Shown: in pieces, positions 21,191-34,582 of the stretch
How positions within the stretch are numbered: position 1 is the first letter of the stretch
How the letters are laid out: each line of letters begins with the position of its first letter
DNA from: Thelocarpon superellum
Taxonomy: Eukaryota
Assembly: GCA_026025795.1 (NCBI GenBank)
Contig: JAPEUG010000046.1
Span: 1-64,000, forward strand
Reading direction: 5' to 3'
Length of the DNA: 64,000 bases
The notes under the pieces: generated by a model
Seen by the model: the letters and a program-made list of their open reading frames with translations, nothing else
Database searches by the model: none
Told to the model about the DNA's origin: nothing
Program-made: the position numbers and the translations under genes

Positions 21191-23469
21191 GTGACCAGGA
21201 TGACCGCACGATGCATTACCCGTTCTGGCGTTCTGAGGAAGAAATTGTCTGTATCTACAACTTCTTGTCGTACATTCTGCATCAGAAACGTAGCATTCAT
21301 TTCGAGACTGTTGTAGAGCGTGGCAATCTAAGCCGCGAGTACTTGCGATGATGCGATGATTCATCCGGCGCTACTGGATTTCGGTAGCCGTCGGGCGGGC
21401 GAAGATTTTCGCTTTCGCTTTCGCTTTCGTTGGCGAACCGTGGAAGGGCGAAGCGCGATGCCACGACCTGATCTGTGCGATGACGCTACGGAGCGAGTGG
21501 TGGACACGCTTCGGCGAGCAGCACTTCACCTCCAGCCATCCGTCACTGATGACTTCTCTCGTTGTACTCGCTATGATTCGGGTCTTCTTCCTAACACTGC
21601 CTTGAATGTTGCCATCGACGATGACGGTATGATCGTGGGCTCTCGCCTCGTCGTCGGGCCAACGTGCTGAGGCCGGCGCTCGCCTGGCGCCAGGTCCCGC
21701 TCGTTGCGCCATGGGATTGGACAGCGCTGGCGTGGAAGAAACCCCCGGCGCAGACGCCGGCTCGCCCGCCAAGGCAAGTTTGGCGCACCTCGCCGAAGGG
21801 ACAACGCATGCCTGCATACGCCGTCAAAGTCTCCAACCATGGGAGCATCCAGCGGTAAGGGTCCGCGGACGGCGGACCTGTGGCAAGGCTTGCGCACTAG
21901 CATCGTAGACGGCGTCCACGGGCGAGTTGATCCTCACTTCTCTTGCGTTGCCATGACACTGTTCCCCACCGGCGTCAAATCACAGCGTGGAAGAGCATGA
22001 CCCCAGCCTGTCGACTGCATCGATTGCACGACATGCTGCGCCTTACAAGTGTTCGTCTCGAGACGTTCGGGGACAACTCTTCGTATTTAGACGTGATTAC
22101 CCGTACCCGTACCCGGACTGGTGCCGGAGGACATTGCGCCAGGATGTACCCGAGAGCTTGGCTATCCACCCATCCTCAACGCCTAGTGGACGTTGGACAA
22201 GGTGAGTCTGGCGATGGCAGCAACGCGGCGGCGCAGCTGCGTCCAGGATCTGACGAGCCTCGGCGATTGGCGACGGCCCCCGAGTCCGTGAAGAGGCTCC
22301 GGGCTGTCACTACTCGTCAGGTTGCACGGGCGGGTATTCTGAAGCAGCTACGGGAGGCGTGGTAGCTACGGTGTTATTGAGCCCCGGCCATTGATGCCGC
22401 GCACGCACTCAGGAGAGCGAATAAAGACGCCGTCCTGTTGCCAGGTTCCGTACCAGGTACTCGTACACGTAGCTAAGTCGTATGGTTGCGACCAGCGCTG
22501 GCAGGTACTGCTAGCCCACGGCATTTCGGGACGAAACTTAGCCCTGGAGGACTTTGGCGTTGGTTTGTTGTTCGTTCGTTTCTCCGTTTCGCCCCCGGGG
22601 CAGATCGAGCCTCCCGCAGCGCTGCAGCAGCGCTCCGCACAGCTCAGCCTTGCCTAAGGCGCTCTGCACCGCGCCGCACCGCACCGCACCCCAGCGTCAC
22701 CTCCACTAATCCATCAATCCATCAATCCATCAACCCACCAATCCACCAACGGTAGATCCTCAGCTTCACTCACCCTTCGGATGAGCCAGGACGATCGTCA
22801 TAGATTCAAGGACGCCGAAAGTCCATTGCCCCATCCGCAGCGAGTCGTGTTCATTGCAGACCAGATCCAGAAGAGTGTCCGCTGGATTGGGCGTCGTCGT
22901 GGTCTCGCTCTGGACTCACGGCCGAGACATCTGCCCACCGCTACGACGACTAGGTCCCGGCCGCCCATGCCCACGCGGCACGGCACCGTCCACGATCCCA
23001 CAACATCACTTACCTCTATCACACGCTCACCTCTAAGAGACGCTCGTCAGGTGGACCACTACGAGCTCGTCAGTACGGGCGGTGCTCGAACCACCGTCGC
23101 TCGCTAGGCACCGGACGGACCACGACCGGCCTGCGTCACGACGAGCAACTCCTCCGCCACGCTCGCCACTGTCGCCGCGCCCCGTCGTCGCCGAGATCGT
23201 CGGTCCGTAGTCAATGGCGCCAGTTGTCTGAAGAGCCTCTGCACGCGGCGTCTAGGCCGGTTGGCGCGGCCGACTGTGCGCACTGCGCGAGCGGAGCGAC
23301 GTCGGGCTGGCCATCGCCGCGGCATCGCTTCAAACGCAGCGAAATCCCTCAATCCCTCATCGGCCACGCCACCAGGACGCACGACGTCAACGGCGTCCGA
23401 ATCCTCTGAGACGGGAGGGGTCGGCCGTGCCTGTGCCCGCCTCGATCCTGAGTCTCCCTCCTCTCCAAG

Positions 23470-26400
23470 ATGGGCGTGGATGCTCCGCTTCCGCCCCCCA
23501 CCGACTCGTCCACGCTCGAATCGGCCACCACCGCGCCCACCGTGACCGAGCACAAGGAGCTCGCATCTGATATCTCCCAGCGCACGGATCGCACGTCCTA
23601 TTCCATCCCAGACGACGGCAGTCCCATCACCATCTCCACCCGCCGCAAGCGACCCGGCCGTGAACGGGACGGCGACAGCACCCTGACCCGTGCCTCCCAC
23701 CAGTCTCAGACCTCCCTGCTCATCGAGTACTTTGAGGGCGCGCGCAGCGGCAGTCAGGTCAACGCACGACCCAGCGTCCGTGTCAAGGTCACTCCATCCG
23801 CAGCGCGGAAGATCAAGGACAATCACGACCATATCCAGATCTCCGAGACCGGCCGGAACCGGCAGCCTTCGTACACCAAACGCATTTCCCTCTCGCCCCG
23901 CGTGCACACCGACCCCGCCCACGGCGAGAGCGGCGACGACCGCAGCCTGAGCTCCTACGCCTCCGCCACCGAAGAGTCCATCCTCCCCTCCCGTCGGCCG
24001 CCGGTCGAGATCGAAGTTATGCATAAGGATCCACCCTCACCTCGCGACCGGCGCTACGTACCGCCCAACCCCTCGGAGATCTCGTCCATGCCCCCGGACA
24101 GCGTTCTCGAGACCTCTACCCGAACTCGCACCCCGACGCGCGAGCGCACCCCTAGTCCATCCCAGCCGCGAGGCGAAACCTCGCTCAAGACGCCCTCGCG
24201 CCGACGAAGCCGAAGCTTGAGTCGCGAGCGTATCGCGCAAAAGGTCATTGAGAAGCTCGGCAACAAGCCTGTGGAAAAGATTGTGGAGTCAAGCAGCCGG
24301 CAGAAGCGGCCGAGCAAGAGCCGAAGCCGGAGCGTTAGCAAGGAGCATATCGAGGCCAGTCGACCGTCGCCGCGTCGTCGTTCGAGCCGGACCCATGCCG
24401 AGGAAGATTTAGTGAGTGGAGCCGAGTCGAGTCTGGTCACGCACTCGGGCGTCTCGTCCAACCGTAAGTCGGTCGACCAGAACTCCTTCCGCTCCAACAC
24501 GTCCAAGTCGTCTCTCAACAACCCGCGCCTGCTCGAGGCCGTTGAAGATGCCATCAAGCGATTGCTACCGGAGCTCACAGCCCTGAAGCATGAGCGTCGC
24601 TCTCGCCACGAGTCGAGCAGTGGCCAACGTGTCCGCCGTGACACCGTCACCGATATCGACTATGTCGAGGGAGGCGAGAGCTCACGACGTGTACCGCGCA
24701 AGACCTCGGGTGGCACGGACCGCCCCAAGGTCGTCCTGAATGGTGATGAGCACGGTTCAGGCCTGGTCTTGTCGGGTGATTCGGTCAAGGGCCGGAAGGT
24801 GCGAAAAAGTTCCAAGAGCGCGAGTGCCTCCCCAGTGGACAGCTACGACCGGGGCGTCTCTGAGGACACGGTGGTGGAGGAGAAGTCTCACAAAAAGCGA
24901 AGCAAGGACCGACACACCGCCCGTGACGCCCTGGCCGTCGGTGCGGCCGGCGCCCTCACTGCCGCTGCCTTGCGGCACCACGACTCCAAGTCCAGCGTCG
25001 AGCGACAAGATCGACAAGAACGACAGGAGCGCCGAAAACGACGGAGCAAGAGCCGTAGCCGGAGCGCCAGTCTTGCGGAAAGTCTTGAGTCCCCACGTCC
25101 CCACGAGATTCCGCCCATGCCCATGAGCAGCGACATCCAGGGCTCCGAGGTGACCCGCGAATCTATCTTAACCGTGCGCACCGAGCGCCCGCCATCAGCC
25201 ACGTCGCAGGAACGATATCCCCACGCGCCAGACCCTCCATCCCCTGGGCCCCGGCGCTTGACCAAAGCGCCGCCGCGATCCCCTCGTGATCTCGAGACCG
25301 GTCACGGCCACCGGTCCCGGGGCGACATCAGCCTCGACAGCGTGCCCAGTGACAAGAGCGTGCGGAGGAGTGACCATCTAGGCCGGGCGGTGGCGGCCGG
25401 CCTCGCCGCGGCCGGCATTACCGCGGCCGGCACCCACAAACGTTCAGGTCGAGATAGCGGGGCCCTGGTCGATGACCGATCCCGCGAGGTGGAGACGCAC
25501 GACTATGATACGGGACGTGATGGGGGTCTTAGTCCCATCCAGAGCGTTGCCAGCTCGCGCGAAGACCGGCTCCACGACGATCATTACCGGCAGTCATCTC
25601 GGCGGGTCCGAGACTCTGCGTCACTCGCCTCGCCCACCAAAGACTTTCGTCGGCAGAACTCCGGGCTTTCTACCGATTCCATGTCGTCTGCTGCCAGCGG
25701 ACAGCTCATCGGAACTCAGAAGCACACAGATTCGCCCATAGCGAATGAGGATGACAAAGAGTACTGGCACGAGCAACATCAGGAGAATGAGCGAAATCGG
25801 GCCCTGCAGCAGGGTCTGGCGCGCGACCCAACCATTGACATCAAACACATGACAAATTACACCGACGACAGTATGGACGGAGCCTTTCTCGAGCGCGCTG
25901 CGGCCGGTCAACATGTCGTTGGCATTGGCGCCAATCCCGAATATCGTCACACCCCTGTAGCGGTCTCGTCGGCTGTTGCGTCGCTGCATGAACCGTCGGT
26001 GGTGGATCTGCACTCAACCCGCTCGTACCAGGACTCGCTGGACGATGAACGTTACGATGACGTCACGGATCGTAGCCAACGTCACAGTCCTAGCAAGACC
26101 GGATATCATGGGGGCCAGCGGGAGATCTCGCCGGAGCATGTCACTCTCGGCGCCAGTGGTGTGCCGGTCGCCGATGATCCCATGCCGGAGATCGGGCATG
26201 GGCTGAGTGACGAGTCCGACATCAATACCAATCCCTCCATCATCCAAGGGCCCATCGGCGGCATTCAACATGAGAACCGGGATCACTGGCCCTACGAGCC
26301 CACTCCTCCCCACTCGAACGGAAATCTTCTCGCCGGTGTTGGCGAGGAACGAGAAGTGGCGCTTCTCGGCGCGGCCGCGGGTGTGGGGCTGGGTGCCGCG

Positions 26401-28646
26401 GTGGCGGGACAAAGTCACGGACGTGGGGCGGCACAAGAGGGGTATGGCTACAAAAATGCCGCCCAAGCCACGCCGGTGAAGGACGAGGGTTATATCTCCT
26501 CGGCAAATCCTCGGTCTCCAGGCGGTATCACGCCCGAACCGCGTGGCAAAGGGGTCGACATGTTCGATGCGGGTACGACAGCGGACATGGGCCTGGGTCT
26601 GTCGGCAGATGATCCCTTTACAAGCCAGAGCCACGCGCGTCATCTGAGCGGTAACTCACACGGCATGCCGTCCCCGCTGTATGACAGCGCCACGGGGAAA
26701 GGCGTCGATCGCATCCAGTCACGCGACGTAGTCGCCTTGATGGACCATCTCACTGTTCGGGACGCACAGCGAAACGCGCGCGACACGGAGATCCTGGTCA
26801 CGCTCGTCCGCAGCGCAGCGGAGATGCGCAATTCATTTGAAGACATGAAGCGGTTCCTGCTGGAGCACGAGAACCATATCATCAGCACCACGGAGACAAA
26901 CACGGAACGGTCGGTGCAAAAAGTCTTGCATGGACCTCGACCGTTGCCTTTGGGCAGCCCCCGCGGGCCTCGTCGGAGCTCGGCCGAGGTGGACATGTTG
27001 GAGGATGTGCCGACCAAGCGACGGAATGTCTTCCGGAGGGCCTTGAAGGGGCTTAGCATGCGCAGCACCAACGACTTGACCAAGATCGAAGAGATGTAAG
27101 TGGAACAAGCTGGAATGGGAAGAGGAAGACTGACAGCGCGCAGGCTGGTGCAACTGCTGGGAGACGTCGAAGGGCTCAAAGCGGCGCAGGACCCTCGGCC
27201 GACCGGCGCGCCTACCACCAACCCCAGCTCTTACGATAACCTTCGTACGGTCCCCGAGGGCTACGAACCAGAAGGGCAGGCCGGCACGGGCTCCACAAAC
27301 CCGACGGGATCGGGGTATTTCTCGAACCCTCCGTCGCGCCAGCCCAGTGCGATGCGAGGGATCGAGGGTCGGCGGACGTCGGATCATCGGATCAGCACGG
27401 TGCCAGAAGGAGACGAGGAGATGCACGGCTACGACGACCGACCGGCCACGCCAACGTACGAGAACACGGAACAGGTTCTCACGCCCACACGCCAGAGCCC
27501 ACAGCTTGAGCAGCACGAGCAGTACCTTGCGCCTCAATCCGGGCCGACCCGGGGGGCGTCGCTCCCGCTCGACACGCCGCCGCAAGCGCAAGCAACACCA
27601 GGCACCAAGAGCAATGAGAACACGCCGCGGACGGAGAAGGGGCGGAAGCACAAGTCCAACAGCTCGTCCATCTTCCCCAAGATCTCGCGATGGTCGGAGA
27701 CGACGGCGTCCACGGTCGCGAGACAATTTCGCGGCGGAGCTCGCAAGGGCGCCGTCTACTCGGAACCAGCGTCGCAATCGGGCTCGGAGCAGGATCTCTG
27801 GGGGGATATTCACCACGATCCGCACGGTGCCGACCGACTGCCGGGCCTGTATCATGACCAGCAAACGCCGCCAACCAGCCTCGATCAACGTGCGCCGTCG
27901 CCGCTCATCCCCGAGGTGCCGCCGATTCCACAGGACTATCAAGAAGATCCCAAATACCAGGTCCACCGCGATTCGCAGAATCTCCAACACCCACAGCCGC
28001 GACCGGGACCGACGTATCGGTATCAGAACCGGCTGGAGTCGCACATCGACGAGTTCGGGTACTCGCCGTCGGTAACGTCGGAGCCTGGCCTTTCCAATCC
28101 AACCCTGAATCGTCTGTCGGGCGGATCTGGCACGCGATATAGCGGAGGCGCAGGGAACCCGTCTCCCGTCTCGGACGCGGGATACTCTCAAGCCTCCGCG
28201 GCCGATCAGACGGCGCCTCCACGGCCGCCCAAGATTCCAGACGAGCCACTGGTGCCGGCTCCTTTGGAGCGTGGATCTGGTCAATTGACGCCGCAGCAAG
28301 TCAACAAGAGCCGATTTAGCGACGGGTCGAACTACAGCGGGGTAGGTGGTCATCCGTCTTTGCTCCTCTCGTGAGCCCCCCATGTTGACGTGCCCTCCAG
28401 ATGAACGGATCCCCGCGTTCGGCATCGGGGCAAGTGCCGCAACGCAAACCGACCGGACCTCGACCCATTTCCGCCGTGCCTAATTATGGAACGGACCCAT
28501 CGCCGGGAGGAAGGCAGCGGAACCGCAATCGAGGTGTGTACTGGGCCGCTTCCGCACGAGGAATGAGCACCCCGCTGACATTGATTGACGCAGATACATT
28601 TGGATTAAGCGCGCAAGCGCACCATCCCGACGACGATACTTTCTGA
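23470..28646 (+). CDS. Large (about 1680 aa), mostly disordered conserved fungal protein of unknown function
   Basis: 1209-aa first exon joined through introns at 27096-27143, about 28342-28400 and 28534-28593. Conserved-looking islands SQTSLLIEYFEG, PSVRVKVTP and DRIQSRDVVALMDHLTVRDAQRNARDTEILVTLVRSAAEMRNSF (coiled-coil-like). Confidence 0.85.
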
Positions 28647-29228
28647 GGAATCTTCATCGTCCCGCTTCTCCTAACACTCCTTTTTCTCTCTGTTCCCTCT
28701 TCCGCGTTCGGGTCCACTTCGGCTCTAAAGTCTTGTATTTCTCGGCGAGCGTGAACAAGTGCGTGAGCGGGAGCGGCAAAATCTTCGAGTACGATAGGAG
28801 CGACGTGTGTGCATCAAGCCATGGATGCGTCAATCAATCAAGCATTACACTCAGTCCCGCGTGCAGCGTGCAGTGTCTAATGTGGCGAGGACCACGAAGG
28901 CGAAGATGGAATACACGATTCGAGTCAAGACGCTTCCGCGCCGTGATACTTACCGCTGTCATGGTACTCCAACGCGGCAGGGTCACGGCGCGGAAGTGCT
29001 TCTAAAGTATCAGTGACTTCACGGGTCCCTCCAGGACCCCCCCCATTCCTTTCTTTTTCTTGCCCCGCTTATCTAGCACCCCCCATCACTCTCCGCACGC
29101 CTTCGTCCGTTGCACCTCGCGCAGGTCCTTGACTTCTTCCTCTCTTATGCACATCCTACGCCTTTGACTGTAATATTCACATTTTCGCTATCGAAGCCAC
29201 GCAACGGTCGAGTTCAGCAGCTGGCATC

Positions 29229-30095
29229 ATGCCTGGCTATTGCTTCCAGTTTGCAGAGTCAGGACTATGCCGGTATGGCTATGCGTGCAAATATCCCCAT
29301 GTCTTGCACAAGGAACGTCGCGTCACCTCTTGCCTCGGTCAGGAGAACGAGACTGACGTCTCATCTGACAGGCTCCAATCCCGAACAAGAACAAGGGGAA
29401 GAAGAAGAACATGAATACTACCACCCATACCAACACCAAGCAGAAGACCAGCAAGCCCCGCAAGAAGAAGGCGGTACATGCGGGGCACCTCGACACCTTC
29501 TTTGCAGGATATCCCGAATTCAACTACCGTCGAGGCCAGTCCTCGACGCGCGAATTCTACCGCATGTGTGACTTCTTTGGCTGGGACCGCGACGATCCTG
29601 AGCGGGGCGAGGCCCACGACGACTTCAAAACGGCCTTGGTGCAGCAGTTCAACAGCCTCTATGGCACCGACGAAGAAAGCATCGAGTCGTGGCGTGGCCT
29701 TTGTCTTGCACTGGACGTCGATCCGCTCCCCGACAATGTCAAAGACGCCAAAGAGGTAGGTATCGTCACCGACCTTTCATCCTGCCGTGGCAAGCATGCG
29801 TGCGTGCGCGCGCGCGCGGACGGTATACTTCTCTCAACCCGCGCGAACGTGGAAGATAACGAGCGTGTAGATCTTCAAGGGCATGTTTGTCAACCTCGTT
29901 GACCTCGTCGACACAGCCAATACCGGCGACGAGGTCACGCAGTTCGGCAGCCTCGAGGAATTGAAGGAATATACGATTAACACGGGCAAGTACTTTCCCA
30001 AGGAATCGGCGTACGCGGGCGGCATGCTCAAGCACTTGCTTCGCGAGATCGTGAACAAGTACCACAATGGCGTGTCTGGTCGCAGGCGCCGCTAG
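29229..30095 (+). CDS. CCCH zinc-finger protein with an uncharacterised fungal helical domain
   Basis: N-terminal C-x8-C-x5-C-x3-H (CFQFAESGLCRYGYACKYPH) and a basic linker. The domain reads FFAGYPEFNY...EFYRMCDFFGW...FNSLYGTD...SWRGLC...|IFKGMFVNLVDL...KYFPKESAYAGGMLKHLLREI. Intron 29756-29870 is clear; the first intron acceptor is at 29371 but its donor is weak or uncertain. Confidence 0.8.
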
Positions 30096-30395
30096 ACTTG
30101 TGGGACTTGGGATGGAGGGCCGTGGAAGTGGAGGCGGAAGTATGGGCAGTAGTTGCTCGGGTGTGGACGAGACGAGGCTGACCTGCCTCACCACCACGCT
30201 AATTCATGATTGGGATCAAGTTTTGATCCCGCGGGGAGATCTGACTGGAGGGCTCCTCATGCAGCAAAGAGGGGTCAGATGCATGTCCACGTCAGTAGTA
30301 GCGAGGTAGTAGAATGGACAGCGACGCTACTCCCGCAATCCAGGAGTGCGCCGATAGAGTCCGAAGGGTCAAGAGAGCTGTAGCCCCAACAAACC

Positions 30396-31265
30396 ATGGA
30401 TCCCAAACGCACGATGTAACCGGGCGAGATCTGGTGGCTACGGAAGAGAGATGAGATTGAACCGGCTCTGCTCGCGGGCGCGGACATTGACGATGGCTGC
30501 TTCAATCACCCTGTCGTGATCCTGGCTGCTCGTCTGGAGGACACCACGGCAGAGCTCCTCTTGGTCAGTATCAGCGATGGACAAATCTCAATGACGTGCC
30601 TCGCTCACCTCTCCCAGGTCACGTCAGTCAACGGCCGAAGTGTGCAACAGCGGTTTCGCGACAAGCCCGAGATCCAGCGCCGGTGTCTGCCCATCGAACC
30701 CGCCCCTGGCTTTGATGGCTGCGTCATGCTTCACCTCGATGGCAACGGCGAGCTCCCCAAACAGAGCTACGTTAGCATACAGGAGCACCGGGTGGTCCAG
30801 AAGGACCTTTTGGCTCCCGCCTATCGCGGCCGGCTCAAACTCAATACAGCTTCATTGCAGCACCTGGCCCGCATCGCCAAGGACAGGGAAAGCTTACGAG
30901 CAACTTCTTCCCACATTATTCGACGGCCTTTCGTCTACCCGGTCGCCCCCTCGTCTGTCCAGGGGCACGCGCTTGCCCCGGCGTTGCGTGCGCCGGCCCG
31001 GCCGCCACCCCGAACACTCCAAACACAAGAGGATCGGAGAGCGTCAAGCCAACACAGCTACGTTAGACCTCCGATTGCCCGTCAAGAGCGACAGCAACGT
31101 GCCGCTTCTGTCAGCAATGAGCGAACCCGCTCCTCCCGTTCTACGAGCCCGTTCGTCTTCGATCTTCAACGCCTTGTAGTCCTGTACCTCCTTGGTTGGT
31201 GCCTCGTGCAATTTTCTTTCTTTTTCGGTATTCCATCTATCTCCTCTGTTTACACTACGTGGTAA
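30396..31265 (+). pseudogene. MazF/PemK-like-motif protein with a C-terminal transmembrane tail, interrupted by an in-frame TAA at codon 8
   Basis: ATG GAT CCC AAA CGC ACG ATG TAA(30417-30419) CCG GGC GAG ATC TGG TGG continues in frame as PGEIWWL...CFNHPVVIL...ELLL|VTS...LPIEP...LPKQSYVSI...LKLNTASLQHL. Intron 30564-30617. Hydrophobic C-terminus LVVLYLLGWCLVQFSFFFGI. Confidence 0.6.
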
Positions 31266-31659
31266 GGAAGTAGATGTGGATGTGATATTGCTGGGGCATT
31301 ACGTACATGTATCGAGATGAGATGCGACAAGTTGGGATCTGGTACGATTGGACTAGGGTTGTGAAAATCGCATTCGCGGTCTGCGCTGGGAGATAACAGG
31401 ACTCGCCTTCATTGGGTAGGTGTGCGAGTCCGCTTTGGCCTGTGTACGAGTCGGAACAGCTTAAAGTGCCATTCGCTGCCTTCGACCGAGGTCGTGAACT
31501 GTACGGCTGCCCAACCATCCTGGGCCCTTACCCCGCACGGAACGCGGTCGAAGTAAGCAGAGGCATCAAGCCCAGGACCAAGTGGCACATCATCAGTCTA
31601 CGCAGTCAAAGGCCACGCTCCTCCTCGTCATCTACCTACCTTGAACCCCCATCTCAACC

Positions 31660-32259
31660 ATGGACGCAATGTACAGGCTCCTTTGGGTACGTTGAGGGAA
31701 TCCCATGCCAAGCTCTCGTGCTGGGTAGCTTGGCTCCCAATAGCCTGGCGTTCCCTGGTTAGGAGACATATCCAGCGACGTTGGCCAGTCAGTTCCAGAT
31801 AACCTTCCGCTTACACAGGCGCCATGATAGGAAGCGGGAGCAGCCGGCGCGGCAGCGGCGGTCGAAATAGGACGGTCCCCCGCCAGTCAAGCGGCCGCCG
31901 GCGCCATCGGGAGTGCTAGAGCCGCGGCAATGACGCATGTCGAGAAGAATCCAAAGGCAACGGCGGGTACGGTTGTAATGGTGGTGCTGACGCGGGCTCT
32001 GGGGCCCGCGTGGCTTGTGAGAATTCCAATGGCATCTTTACTGAAATTGGTGGGGTTTGGCGCGAGCGGGGTCGCGTATGGTATGCCCCCTCCAACTCTG
32101 CTAGTGCTTCAAGTGACAAATTGGAGACAGTGGCTGATGATTTGGTGTCGTTCGATGCTAGGGTCGATTGCTGCATCCGACCAGTCGTCGTTTTATGGAG
32201 CTTATGTTCCTGCGGGGAGTGTGTTCTCTTTCGCGCAGTCTGTCGGCATGACTTTCTGA
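31660..32259 (+). CDS. Small hydrophobic ISG12/IFI27 (Ifi-6-16)-motif protein (5' exon structure uncertain)
   Basis: Spliced C-terminus LLKLVGFGASGVAY|GSIAASDQSSFYGAYVPAGSVFSFAQSVGM matches the ISG12 motif GF..G(I/V)..GS.AA..QS..G...AGS.F...QS.G. Intron about 32081-32161. Candidate exon 1 is 31660-31686. Confidence 0.7.
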
Positions 32260-32464
32260 ATTTCGCCGGGGGGTCCGCCCCGGTGTCTGAGGGGGCCCCG
32301 GGTTGACCACGACAACCTCAGTGAAACTATGTCTAGAAACAGCTGAAAAGCCCCTAGCTACGTGTAGGAAATTTGGGTGACTTGGAGGCATATTTCTCCT
32401 GGCTATGCTTCTTGGAGTCCTTCTGCGATTCCAACCTCACCACCAAGAGTCCCTCGATGATGTC

Positions 32465-34582
32465 CTACGCCGGCACAGCTGCGCCGTCGCCCCTTGGATC
32501 ACTGCCTGCGCTATGAATTATAATGCCCGTGTCGGGATCAGTATGGAGCTTGATGACCTGGCCCCTGCCAAACAGGCCCCTCCCCCACCCCGTCACGAAG
32601 CGGACTTGATGACCCCATTCGCGCAACTGCGCCGCCACCGACGGAGAGATGCCCTCTTCGAGATTGATGAGCGCGTCGTTGAGAAAAGGCGCATAGTGTC
32701 CGATGGCTTGGCCCTTCGGGCCCTGCGATTGCTGCTGCTGCTCTTCATTCAGAGGGGGCATGCCGGCGCCGATGCAGACCCGGGGCGCGTCGAGCGCCGC
32801 TTGTGGCGTCTGTCGGAAGGCGAGCATGTTCAGCAGGACTTGTACATGCCCTTGTGGCTGCATGTAGCCGCCCATGACGCCAAAGATGGTGTTGAGCGAT
32901 TGATCATCTGCGTTGGTGACCATGGCTGGAATGATGGTGTGGTAGGGCCGTTTGGCGGGAGCGAGAACATTCGGGTGTGTGGGCTCGAGGCGGAAGCTTG
33001 CGCCGCGGTTATGCAGCGTGAAGCCACATCCGCGCGGTACGATGCCGCTGCCGAAGCCACCGAAGTTGCTGTTGATGAATGACGTGCCGTTGCCCTCACC
33101 GTCTGTCACCGCAAAGTAGACCGTATCGCTGAGGTTATGCGCAGGGGAGCCGTGATCGATGTCGGGGTTAGCTCGACCGGGCATGAAGAGCTTGGCTCGT
33201 TCCGCCAGGTACCCGTTGGAAAGGAGTTCTTCCGTCGGGATGCTTTCAAAGCTCGGATCCGCCACGAACCAGTGCGCGTCGGCAAAGGCGATTCGCAAGC
33301 TTTCAATGACGGCGTGAAGGTGTCTGCGGGCAGTCAATTAGCCTCTTTTACCGGGGACAAATGATCCACTTACTCGGCACTGTTGTGTTCGTGTTCCTCG
33401 AAGCGAGGAATCTTGCCGCTTCGCTCGAGTTCTTCCAGGATGCCCAAGGCCATCAGAGCCACGATCCCCTGACCGTTCGGCGGACACTCCCAGACGTCCA
33501 CTCCTTCATCCCCCTTTTTCGCCGTGTCCTGTCCACCATTTGTCGAGTCCCGTGAAACATTTCCGACGGCTTGTCCGTTGAACCTGATCGAGATTGGCTC
33601 CACCACGTCGCTCCCCTTTTCACCATGATTCGTTAGGTCGCTCAGACTGAGATGACCACCGCGAGCCTGTACGACTTTGATCAACTCTGCCGCCACATCG
33701 CCTTCATAGAACCCCTTCCTGCCGTGTTTCCCAAGCAGTCGGAACGTCTTGGCCAGATTGGCATTCTGAAAGATCTCTCCGGCTCTTGGTGCTCGCCTTC
33801 CACCCTCCGTGTGGATATCTGGCTTCAATATCTCTCCGAAGTTCGGCGACGCCTCGCGAAGGACATGTTCCTCAGCACGCCACTGGAATTGGAGTCAGGC
33901 GGGCGCGTTCATTGACTGAGGGATCCTGCACAGACCATTTCTGAAGAAAGCTCGGCGACGGGGTAGCCCTGCTCTGCAAGCTCAATGGCCGGCATCAGTA
34001 CTTGCTCGAGGCTCAGCTTACCACTGCCGAACTTGTCCACCATGTCGACCCAGCCGGCGGCAGCTCCTGGCGTCGTCACGGCATGGACGCTGTTCATGGG
34101 AATTCGTCCAAGCTGGCCGGGTTCTAGACCGAGCTCCTCTCGGATCCCGTCCAGGGTGATGTCGGACGCCGCTCGCCCAGATCCATTGAGCCCGCGAATG
34201 ATCTTGGATTTGGCAGAGTAGAAGAGAGCAAACATGTCTCCACCAATGCCCGTGGATGTCGGCTCCGTCACATTCAGGGCCGCAGCTAGACATGAGATCA
34301 GCGGCCAGCGGTGTCCTGTGTCTTCCAACACCTACCGACGGCGACCGCAGCGTCCTGAGGATGACACGATTAGCAACGCTTTCCGACTCCTGTCCTCTCA
34401 CTCACGGCGGCGTTGCCTCCCTCGCGCAAGATTCGGAGCCCGGCACGAGCGGCCAAGGGCTGTGTACAGGCGACCATGCCATTGGTGCCATGGACTACAC
34501 TTCTCCGACTGGGAAAGGAAATGAACTCTGGATCTGTGGCGGGGTAAATGGCCGGACTGGTGGTGAAAGGTTTGATTTGCAT
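32465..34582 (-). CDS. Gamma-glutamyltransferase family (Ntn-hydrolase), cytosolic type
   Basis: FPSRRSVVHGTNGMVACTQPLA, EPTSTGIGGDMF, TPGAAAGW, ECPPNGQG, catalytic Thr in SDTVYFAV, KRPYHTIIP, GVMGGYMQPQGH and GSDPRGDG. Several introns and no signal anchor. Confidence 0.95.

Follow-up and report, generated by a model that had tools for sequence, protein, structure and literature searches.

The stretch analysed here, the window, comprises 64,000 nucleotides of contig JAPEUG010000046.1 from Thelocarpon superellum, a fungus placed by the NCBI taxonomy in Thelocarpales, Pezizomycotina incertae sedis. On its + strand, positions 30420-31265 carry one reading frame that codes for a domain resembling the bacterial MazF/PemK toxins, a linker and a C-terminal hydrophobic segment, and that is closed upstream by a stop codon. 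The locus is best read as a member, broken not long ago, of a Pezizomycotina gene family that has no name and descends from the MazF/PemK/ToxN superfamily of toxins. An earlier examination of the letters alone (the sequence-only reading) had listed a series of MazF-like motifs here, and all of them do lie in this frame in the order given: PGEIWWL at 30420, NHPVVIL (His codon at 30507-30509), ELLL-VTS, LPIEP, LHL, LPKQSYVSIQEHRVVQKDLL and LKLNTASLQHL. The domain motifs span 30420-30887 and are interrupted by a 54-nucleotide intron. The features of the locus are as follows:

30396-30416, + strand: probable start codon and the remainder of seven codons including the ATG, in the frame of the domain (context caaacc-ATG-g).
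30417-30419, + strand: in-frame TAA, the break in the T. superellum copy, read from the sequence and present also in the contig from run X1.
30314-30454, + strand: 46-codon open reading frame (ORF) in another frame, an alternative N-terminus if there was a frameshift near 30417-30424, proposed from its N-terminal pattern score; its codon usage is poor.
30420-30563, + strand: first exon part of the MazF/PemK-fold domain, with strand 1 (GEIWWL), a long loop, His38 (30507-30509) and strands 2-3, from the model and the alignment.
30564-30617, + strand: phase-0 GT-AG intron of 54 nucleotides, at a position conserved in the family.
30618-30887, + strand: second exon part of the domain, with Thr58-Ser59 (30621-30626), a family-specific helical insertion, LPIxP, K/R-x-S-Y (30759-30770) and a C-terminal helix, from the model and the alignment.
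30888-31175, + strand: Pro/Ser/Arg/Ala-rich linker, probably disordered and unconserved in sequence when homologues are compared.
31176-31232, + strand: single C-terminal hydrophobic segment, a putative tail anchor (mean Kyte-Doolittle hydropathy 2.04), which ends 10 residues before the C-terminus; the stop codon is at 31263-31265.

The intron (GTCAGT...GCTCAC...CAG), which splits ELLL-VTS in frame, is genuine, because spliced homologues join at exactly that point, all three metagenome loci have introns at the same place, and the only residues of the unspliced model with a predicted local distance difference test (pLDDT) score below 50, residues 54-66, fall inside it.

A search of 1.84 billion representatives recovered 73 relatives at E<=0.001, so that the motif set is more than a product of chance, and a profile search added eight members to give 81 proteins. 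A word-index search for longer proteins containing the window domain, an insensitive method, gave 0/2551 candidates. These range over five Pezizomycotina classes, to which we take the genera concerned to belong as follows: Sordariomycetes (Podospora, Xylaria, Ilyonectria), Dothideomycetes (Phaeosphaeria, Periconia), Eurotiomycetes (Cladophialophora, Fonsecaea), Lecanoromycetes (Letharia, Lambiella) and Geoglossomycetes (Glutinoglossum). Intact homologues include proteins from Thermothielavioides, Podospora and Periconia. Names were looked up by cluster for 20 of the 81 proteins, and every member that has one is called 'hypothetical' or 'uncharacterized'; many of the short matches are first-exon fragments from unspliced DNA. 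The conservation alignment comprises the 40 proteins that are spliced or mostly so, 39 of which cover the first half, with an overall identity of about 30-40%. In it His38, Ser59, Pro81 and Pro84 are each found in 39/39 sequences, Thr58 in 38/39, Lys/Arg104 in 40/40 and Ser106 and Tyr107 in 38/40, while Arg76 (37/39) and His88 (36/39) are conserved and specific to the family. The median net charge of the domain is +5. A single C-terminal hydrophobic segment, which the sequence-only reading had proposed as transmembrane, is a trait of the family: among the 47 longer homologues two are without a tail, and 31 of the other 45 reach a hydropathy of at least 1.6 in a 19-residue window near the C-terminus. 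No N-terminal signal peptide was seen in the homologues by eye, with no predictor run. In Letharia columbiana the family is represented by three near-identical gene models (247, 281 and 299 residues), which may be recent duplicates, alleles or assembly copies.

The window domain was modelled with a pLDDT of 85.4 and a predicted template-modelling score of 0.80. When this model was compared with 48,161 solved chains (VIA-align), the top 15 were all toxins of toxin-antitoxin systems (MazF/PemK/Kid/CcdB/ToxN); for 11 the title names MazF, Kid, CcdB or a type III toxin, while the other four, titled only 'toxin' or 'endoribonuclease', are presumably PemK/MazF proteins. The best is the S. aureus MazF at Z 9.7 (root-mean-square deviation, rmsd, 3.2; 107 residues aligned), as against 4.6 for the first unrelated chain. 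The model of an intact homologue, P0050 from Periconia (pLDDT 92.6), has the same best matches by a narrower margin, with 8/8 chains at Z>=8 belonging to these toxins and the best again at 9.7. Foldseek against the PDB places MazF first with probability 1.00 for both models; BFVD returns two matches at E 9.6e-4, one labelled a PemK/MazF toxin and the other an 'endoribonuclease'; and the ESM Atlas yields a PemK cluster (cosine 0.90-0.91, template-modelling (TM) score 0.52), another in which some members are ToxN (TM 0.51), the fungal family DUF6590 (cosine 0.92, TM 0.59-0.60) and unnamed ascomycete clusters. The predicted models thus combine the SH3-like barrel and C-terminal helix of the MazF/PemK/CcdB/ToxN structural superfamily, and the fold, as modelled, is well supported with scores typical of remote homology. 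Common ancestry with the MazF/PemK/ToxN superfamily is considered very probable. Cross-searches between fungal and prokaryotic sets with hidden Markov models (HMMs) gave best E values of 0.022 and 0.041 in tiny databases. A homodimer prediction for P0050 residues 5-150 scored 0.00 with the alignment unused and the controls unfolded, and is counted neither way. The ESM Atlas also contains unnamed basidiomycete clusters (0.93, TM 0.61), a lead to a wider fungal superfamily, and an unnamed 152-residue cluster of 83 members, 57% bacterial (phylum known for seven), which scores above PemK at 0.92-0.93 and is a lead to a prokaryotic sister group.

The fold proposed by the sequence-only reading is hence upheld by the best PDB, BFVD and ESM Atlas matches of two independent models. 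By the test that it had set itself, under which a predicted structure other than a MazF-like barrel, or profile searches without similarity to the PemK clan, would speak against it, the proposal was not refuted. The profile-profile score is borderline and covers the first ~45 columns, so that the C-terminal motif is matched only via structure and a low-scoring global alignment.

For the catalytic site, E. coli MazF and 14 PemK/MazF genes from 40 listed plasmid matches were aligned as a comparison set. In both profile alignments (hhalign score 19.8, probability 4.5%, and score 24.3, probability 8.8%) the fungal His stands opposite E. coli MazF Arg29 and the Thr-Ser opposite Thr52-Thr53, which agrees with the earlier proposal of a His at the catalytic Arg position beside a retained TS dyad; this His is present in 78/78 motif matches among the 81 proteins. 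Three published accounts supply the mechanistic comparison. For E. coli MazF, the roles of general acid and general base are assigned to Arg29 and a stabilising one to Thr52, and Kid and MoxT are reported with other residues, including His (PMC8887465). The MazF site is placed on the linkers between strands 1-2 and 3-4, and its product bears a 2',3'-cyclic phosphate (PMC7180214). The site of E. coli ToxN is given as Lys33, Thr52, Ser53 and Lys55 (PMC8860590). On these descriptions, the Arg29 of MazF as against the Lys33, Thr52 and Ser53 of ToxN suggests that the basic residue varies while Thr-Ser persists. That the most invariant polar residues of the fungal family fall on both of the site linkers is the main argument for catalysis by its intact members, a proposition somewhat better than evenly balanced.

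Among named systems, the MazF/PemK/Kid group (PF02452; S. aureus MazF 4mzm, M. tuberculosis MazF-mt3, Kid 1m1f) shares with the fungal family the barrel and C-terminal helix (Z 8.4-9.7 over about 95-107 residues), the order G-x-I-x-W, loop, x-P-hydrophobic strand, Thr-Ser/Thr, and coinciding catalytic positions. In contrast, the fungal genes are eukaryotic and contain introns, their domain has His rather than Arg and, owing to insertions, is longer, at about 140 residues as against 110, and it is followed by a long linker and a C-terminal hydrophobic anchor. The Thr of the strand 3-4 loop is present and the catalytic Arg absent, and in Pfam the window protein is unmatched while 1/44 members matches PemK_toxin at E 0.0054, short of the cut-off; a PF02452 search of the T. 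superellum assembly (G000) gave no match. The ToxN/AbiQ/CptN toxins (PF13958) belong to the same superfamily, CptN aligning the most residues (117-123, Z 7.7-7.9), and ToxN has the Thr52-Ser53 dyad and a similarly enlarged size; against them, the fungal proteins have His instead of Lys, a higher rmsd (3.9-4.5) and a membrane tail. Tandem repeats of an RNA antitoxin were not evident on reading 28500-33500, with no dedicated repeat search. CcdB shares the fold (Z 7.6-8.1) and is described as a gyrase poison without RNase activity (PMC7180214), whereas the fungal family keeps the RNase-site positions. DUF6590 (PF20233) of Ascomycota is the closest named family both by ESM features (0.92) and by model structure, above PemK; at E<=0.1 it matched 0/44 members and left the window protein unmatched, and a PF20233 search of the assembly found nothing, the controls being likewise silent. 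It is a related (sister) fungal family whose function is itself unnamed. The fungal family is thus not a member of DUF6590, nor, because it lies below the cut-off, has His for Arg and was seen with no antitoxin, of PF02452 or of a MazEF module.

The locus lies in an assembly of 19.2 Mb and 797 contigs. A family was found for 8/15 of the surrounding ORFs scanned, and these are housekeeping genes: a release factor, phospholipase D, Sec1, an actin-family protein, a DEAD helicase, a TRP-like channel and dehydrogenases. The locus is flanked by a CCCH-finger/unnamed protein and a gamma-glutamyltranspeptidase (GGT), one exon of which is 100% identical to a protein labelled T. superellum, the next matches standing at 65%. 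No antitoxin family was recognised among the 23 window stretches scanned, where an unlinked or unrecognised partner is possible; the locus is not a MazEF module. The upstream neighbour (29229-30095, + strand) starts with a short exon in which Pfam sees a CCCH zinc finger below the cut-off (E 0.00028) and continues with two further exons whose domain has no Pfam match; it lies 300 bases ahead of the MazF-fold gene and possibly encodes an RNA-binding protein. At 23452-28374 (+ strand) a single TGA (27097-27099) divides two long ORFs that share a frame, are rich in Ser, Arg and Pro and have no convincing Pfam match; the two probably form one gene, the TGA being part of an intron.

The T. superellum copy is interrupted directly before its first strand by the TAA at 30417-30419, a lesion at which the sequence-only reading had hinted solely in the word 'repaired'. 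Six further codons separate the in-frame ATG at 30396, which is in good context, from this stop; read from that ATG, nine residues precede the conserved Gly, which in homologues is preceded by 2-83. The TAA is not a consensus slip, since the X1 contig (29916-30793, depth 134) has no other letter and no gap against the window over that span, though X1 may be the window's own source; runs X2, X3 and X5 are without coverage of the stop codon, and no RNA run was among those listed with this sequence. Its origin may lie in a nonsense change or in a frameshift from the 30314 ORF, as both histories fit. For the former, the closest metagenome homologue (L002) has a Met at the same place and then a sense codon; for the latter, the end of the 30314 ORF scores 4.9 bits against the N-terminal pattern of the family (72 homologues, two mis-anchored rows dropped) and the ATG-30396 frame -1.3, that reading having been picked post hoc among three. 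No local signature of repeat-induced point mutation was seen (TpA/ApT 0.62), and as regards a close relative that could date the stop, only three loci came from 186 candidate stretches, the best 41-49% identical. Loss of function in this copy is likely. Judging by codon-position GC (0.71/0.42/0.71 and 0.69/0.40/0.73, like the neighbouring GGT gene) and codon usage that are both still gene-like, the loss is recent. No further copy was found in the 19.2 Mb assembly by a one-protein search, the assembly being incomplete, and a second copy of the 3' end of the gene was not found there either.

Some variation has been seen at this and a related locus. Run X1 contains a second version of the anchor-coding stretch 31136-31287 with five substitutions (depth 53 vs 111), which may be a minor haplotype, a second strain or an unassembled paralogue. 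A moss metagenome (X2) contig of depth 2.7 over 30797-31004, the domain end and linker, has two listed substitutions and an in-frame deletion of three bases, too thin for a statement on selection. A metagenome locus (L003:439-760) is a second pseudogene of the family, with a first-exon frameshift and stops past the Thr-Ser motif.

It might be held instead that the T. superellum copy is functional and its stop bypassed conditionally, by stage-specific RNA editing, leaky readthrough or near-cognate reinitiation after a tiny upstream ORF, so that an RNase is kept off until needed. The frame does stay open for 281 codons after the stop, the intron, His, Thr-Ser and tail are intact, the codon-position GC is like that of the neighbouring GGT gene, and no other copy was found. 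Yet in the spliced frame the first ATG comes only past the His and Thr-Ser, and erosion is already under way, with 6/32 conserved columns changed, Arg76 and His88 among them (35/39 homologues have <=5 changed), and a domain net charge of 0 as against the family median of +5. Editing is a poor candidate, for in the published account fungal premature-stop correction turns UAG to UGG, UAA editing gives UGA and keeps the stop, and such editing is reported in Sordariomycetes and Pyronema and not in Aspergillus or Botrytis (PMC11156358). The present stop is a UAA in a host outside both editing lineages, and only 1/72 homologues has a Trp at its position, a profile other than the UAG at a conserved Trp in an editing lineage that rescue would call for; rescue by known fungal editing is thus unlikely. 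Splicing offers two candidates, both rejected: a 13-nucleotide GT-AG is too short, and a 49-nucleotide intron at 30380-30428 has a poor donor and branch point and a GAG acceptor, and removes a Gly kept in 35/37 homologues. Taken together, a functional copy is improbable, and the lesion is better read as a loss.

As for the family, several observations weigh against a catalytic MazF relative. Sequence identity to MazF is low (6-21%), no Foldseek match in the PDB reaches E<=0.001 (3.1e-3 and 3.2e-3), a family HMM run against PDB sequences found no MazF at E<=10 (one tail-only match at E 0.33), and PHROGs and NCBIfam matched 0/52 members. The hhalign score of 19.8 barely tops the best of 30 column shuffles (17.7), and the probabilities of 4.5-8.8% pertain to the first ~45 columns. 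Unrelated ribosomal and SH3/KOW barrels reach Z 7.9 vs 9.7 for P0050, so that a generic barrel of this kind, come to resemble MazF by convergence, might be entertained; this is nevertheless the least probable account, for in P0050 the alignments with MazF-family chains take in the C-terminal helix and extend over 87-123 residues, as against 65-73 for the best generic barrels, the catalytic positions coincide, and PemK is also returned by a search on sequence features. Further, the MazF-specific G-x-E-Q loop motif is absent, the closeness in space of His and Thr is assumed from the modelled fold, and the Arg, conserved to >=90% across the 15 aligned prokaryotic toxins, is replaced in 39/39 of the fungal sequences. 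This replacement would suit a domain of the same ancestry that binds rather than cuts, namely a membrane-tethered RNA-binding or CcdB-like protein-binding module: Arg76 and His88 could form another surface, a harmless protein needs no antitoxin and none is seen nearby, and CcdB itself has the same fold (Z 8.1) and, as described, binds gyrase (PMC7180214). That comparison also cuts the other way, as CcdB is said there to work through another surface, whereas in the fungal family the most invariant polar residues lie exactly on two catalytic positions. The substituted residue is no obstacle in itself, since His is common as a general acid or base in RNases. A binding module is therefore a serious but distinctly less favoured alternative.

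The preferred reading remains that intact members are tail-anchored, metal-independent endoribonucleases with His in place of Arg, to which as a whole a probability of about 0.5 may be assigned. The membrane topology is its firmer part and is probable: with no signal peptide seen by eye, the hydrophobic segment would be a tail anchor and the domain would face the cytosol, even though 14/45 tails fall under the hydropathy cut-off. The C-terminal helix would insert into an organelle membrane and the flexible linker would hold the barrel in the cytosol, where it might cut single-stranded RNA at a short sequence without metal. Attack by the 2'-OH would leave a 2',3'-cyclic phosphate, as in MazF, with the invariant His taking the acid/base role of Arg29 and the Thr-Ser holding the scissile phosphate. 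As no antitoxin gene is found beside the locus, restraint would have to come from elsewhere: it might lie in the tethering or in tight expression, or else in a long recognition site or in the helical insertions by the site, all of which are guesses.

A wider and rather doubtful proposal is that a toxin of the MazF/ToxN type came to fungi early, by inheritance or capture, and there gave rise to the present family, DUF6590 and the basidiomycete clusters, this branch becoming a membrane-tethered His-dependent RNase of innate immunity. It might then act at organelle membranes, the places of RNA virus replication, by cutting RNA of viral or cellular origin, or it might trigger cell death on release or clustering. 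The case for a defence role would draw on the ancestry, the sporadic loss and the near-identical Letharia models (maybe assembly duplicates); together with the decay here and in the second pseudogene, those copies could reflect birth and death under conflict. Several bacterial immune modules have fungal counterparts.

To our knowledge, MazF/PemK toxins have been treated as prokaryotic. No description of a fungal MazF-fold family or of DUF6590 was found in a literature search that left most subscription papers and supplements outside its reach, and the fold may be on record already in large structure-clustering tables or in the InterPro DUF6590 entry. What is of interest here is the family, the T. 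superellum allele being a probable null allele of little weight by itself. A widespread, intron-containing fungal family with this fold, the two catalytic positions and an anchor would extend the superfamily to eukaryotes; if the reading is true, RNA decay or defence in fungi would gain a candidate RNase. A MazF that works with His and cleaves at a new sequence could serve as an RNA tool. The reading also offers a testable function for proteins that are now called 'hypothetical', in their hundreds, and, through the similarity in structure, for DUF6590.
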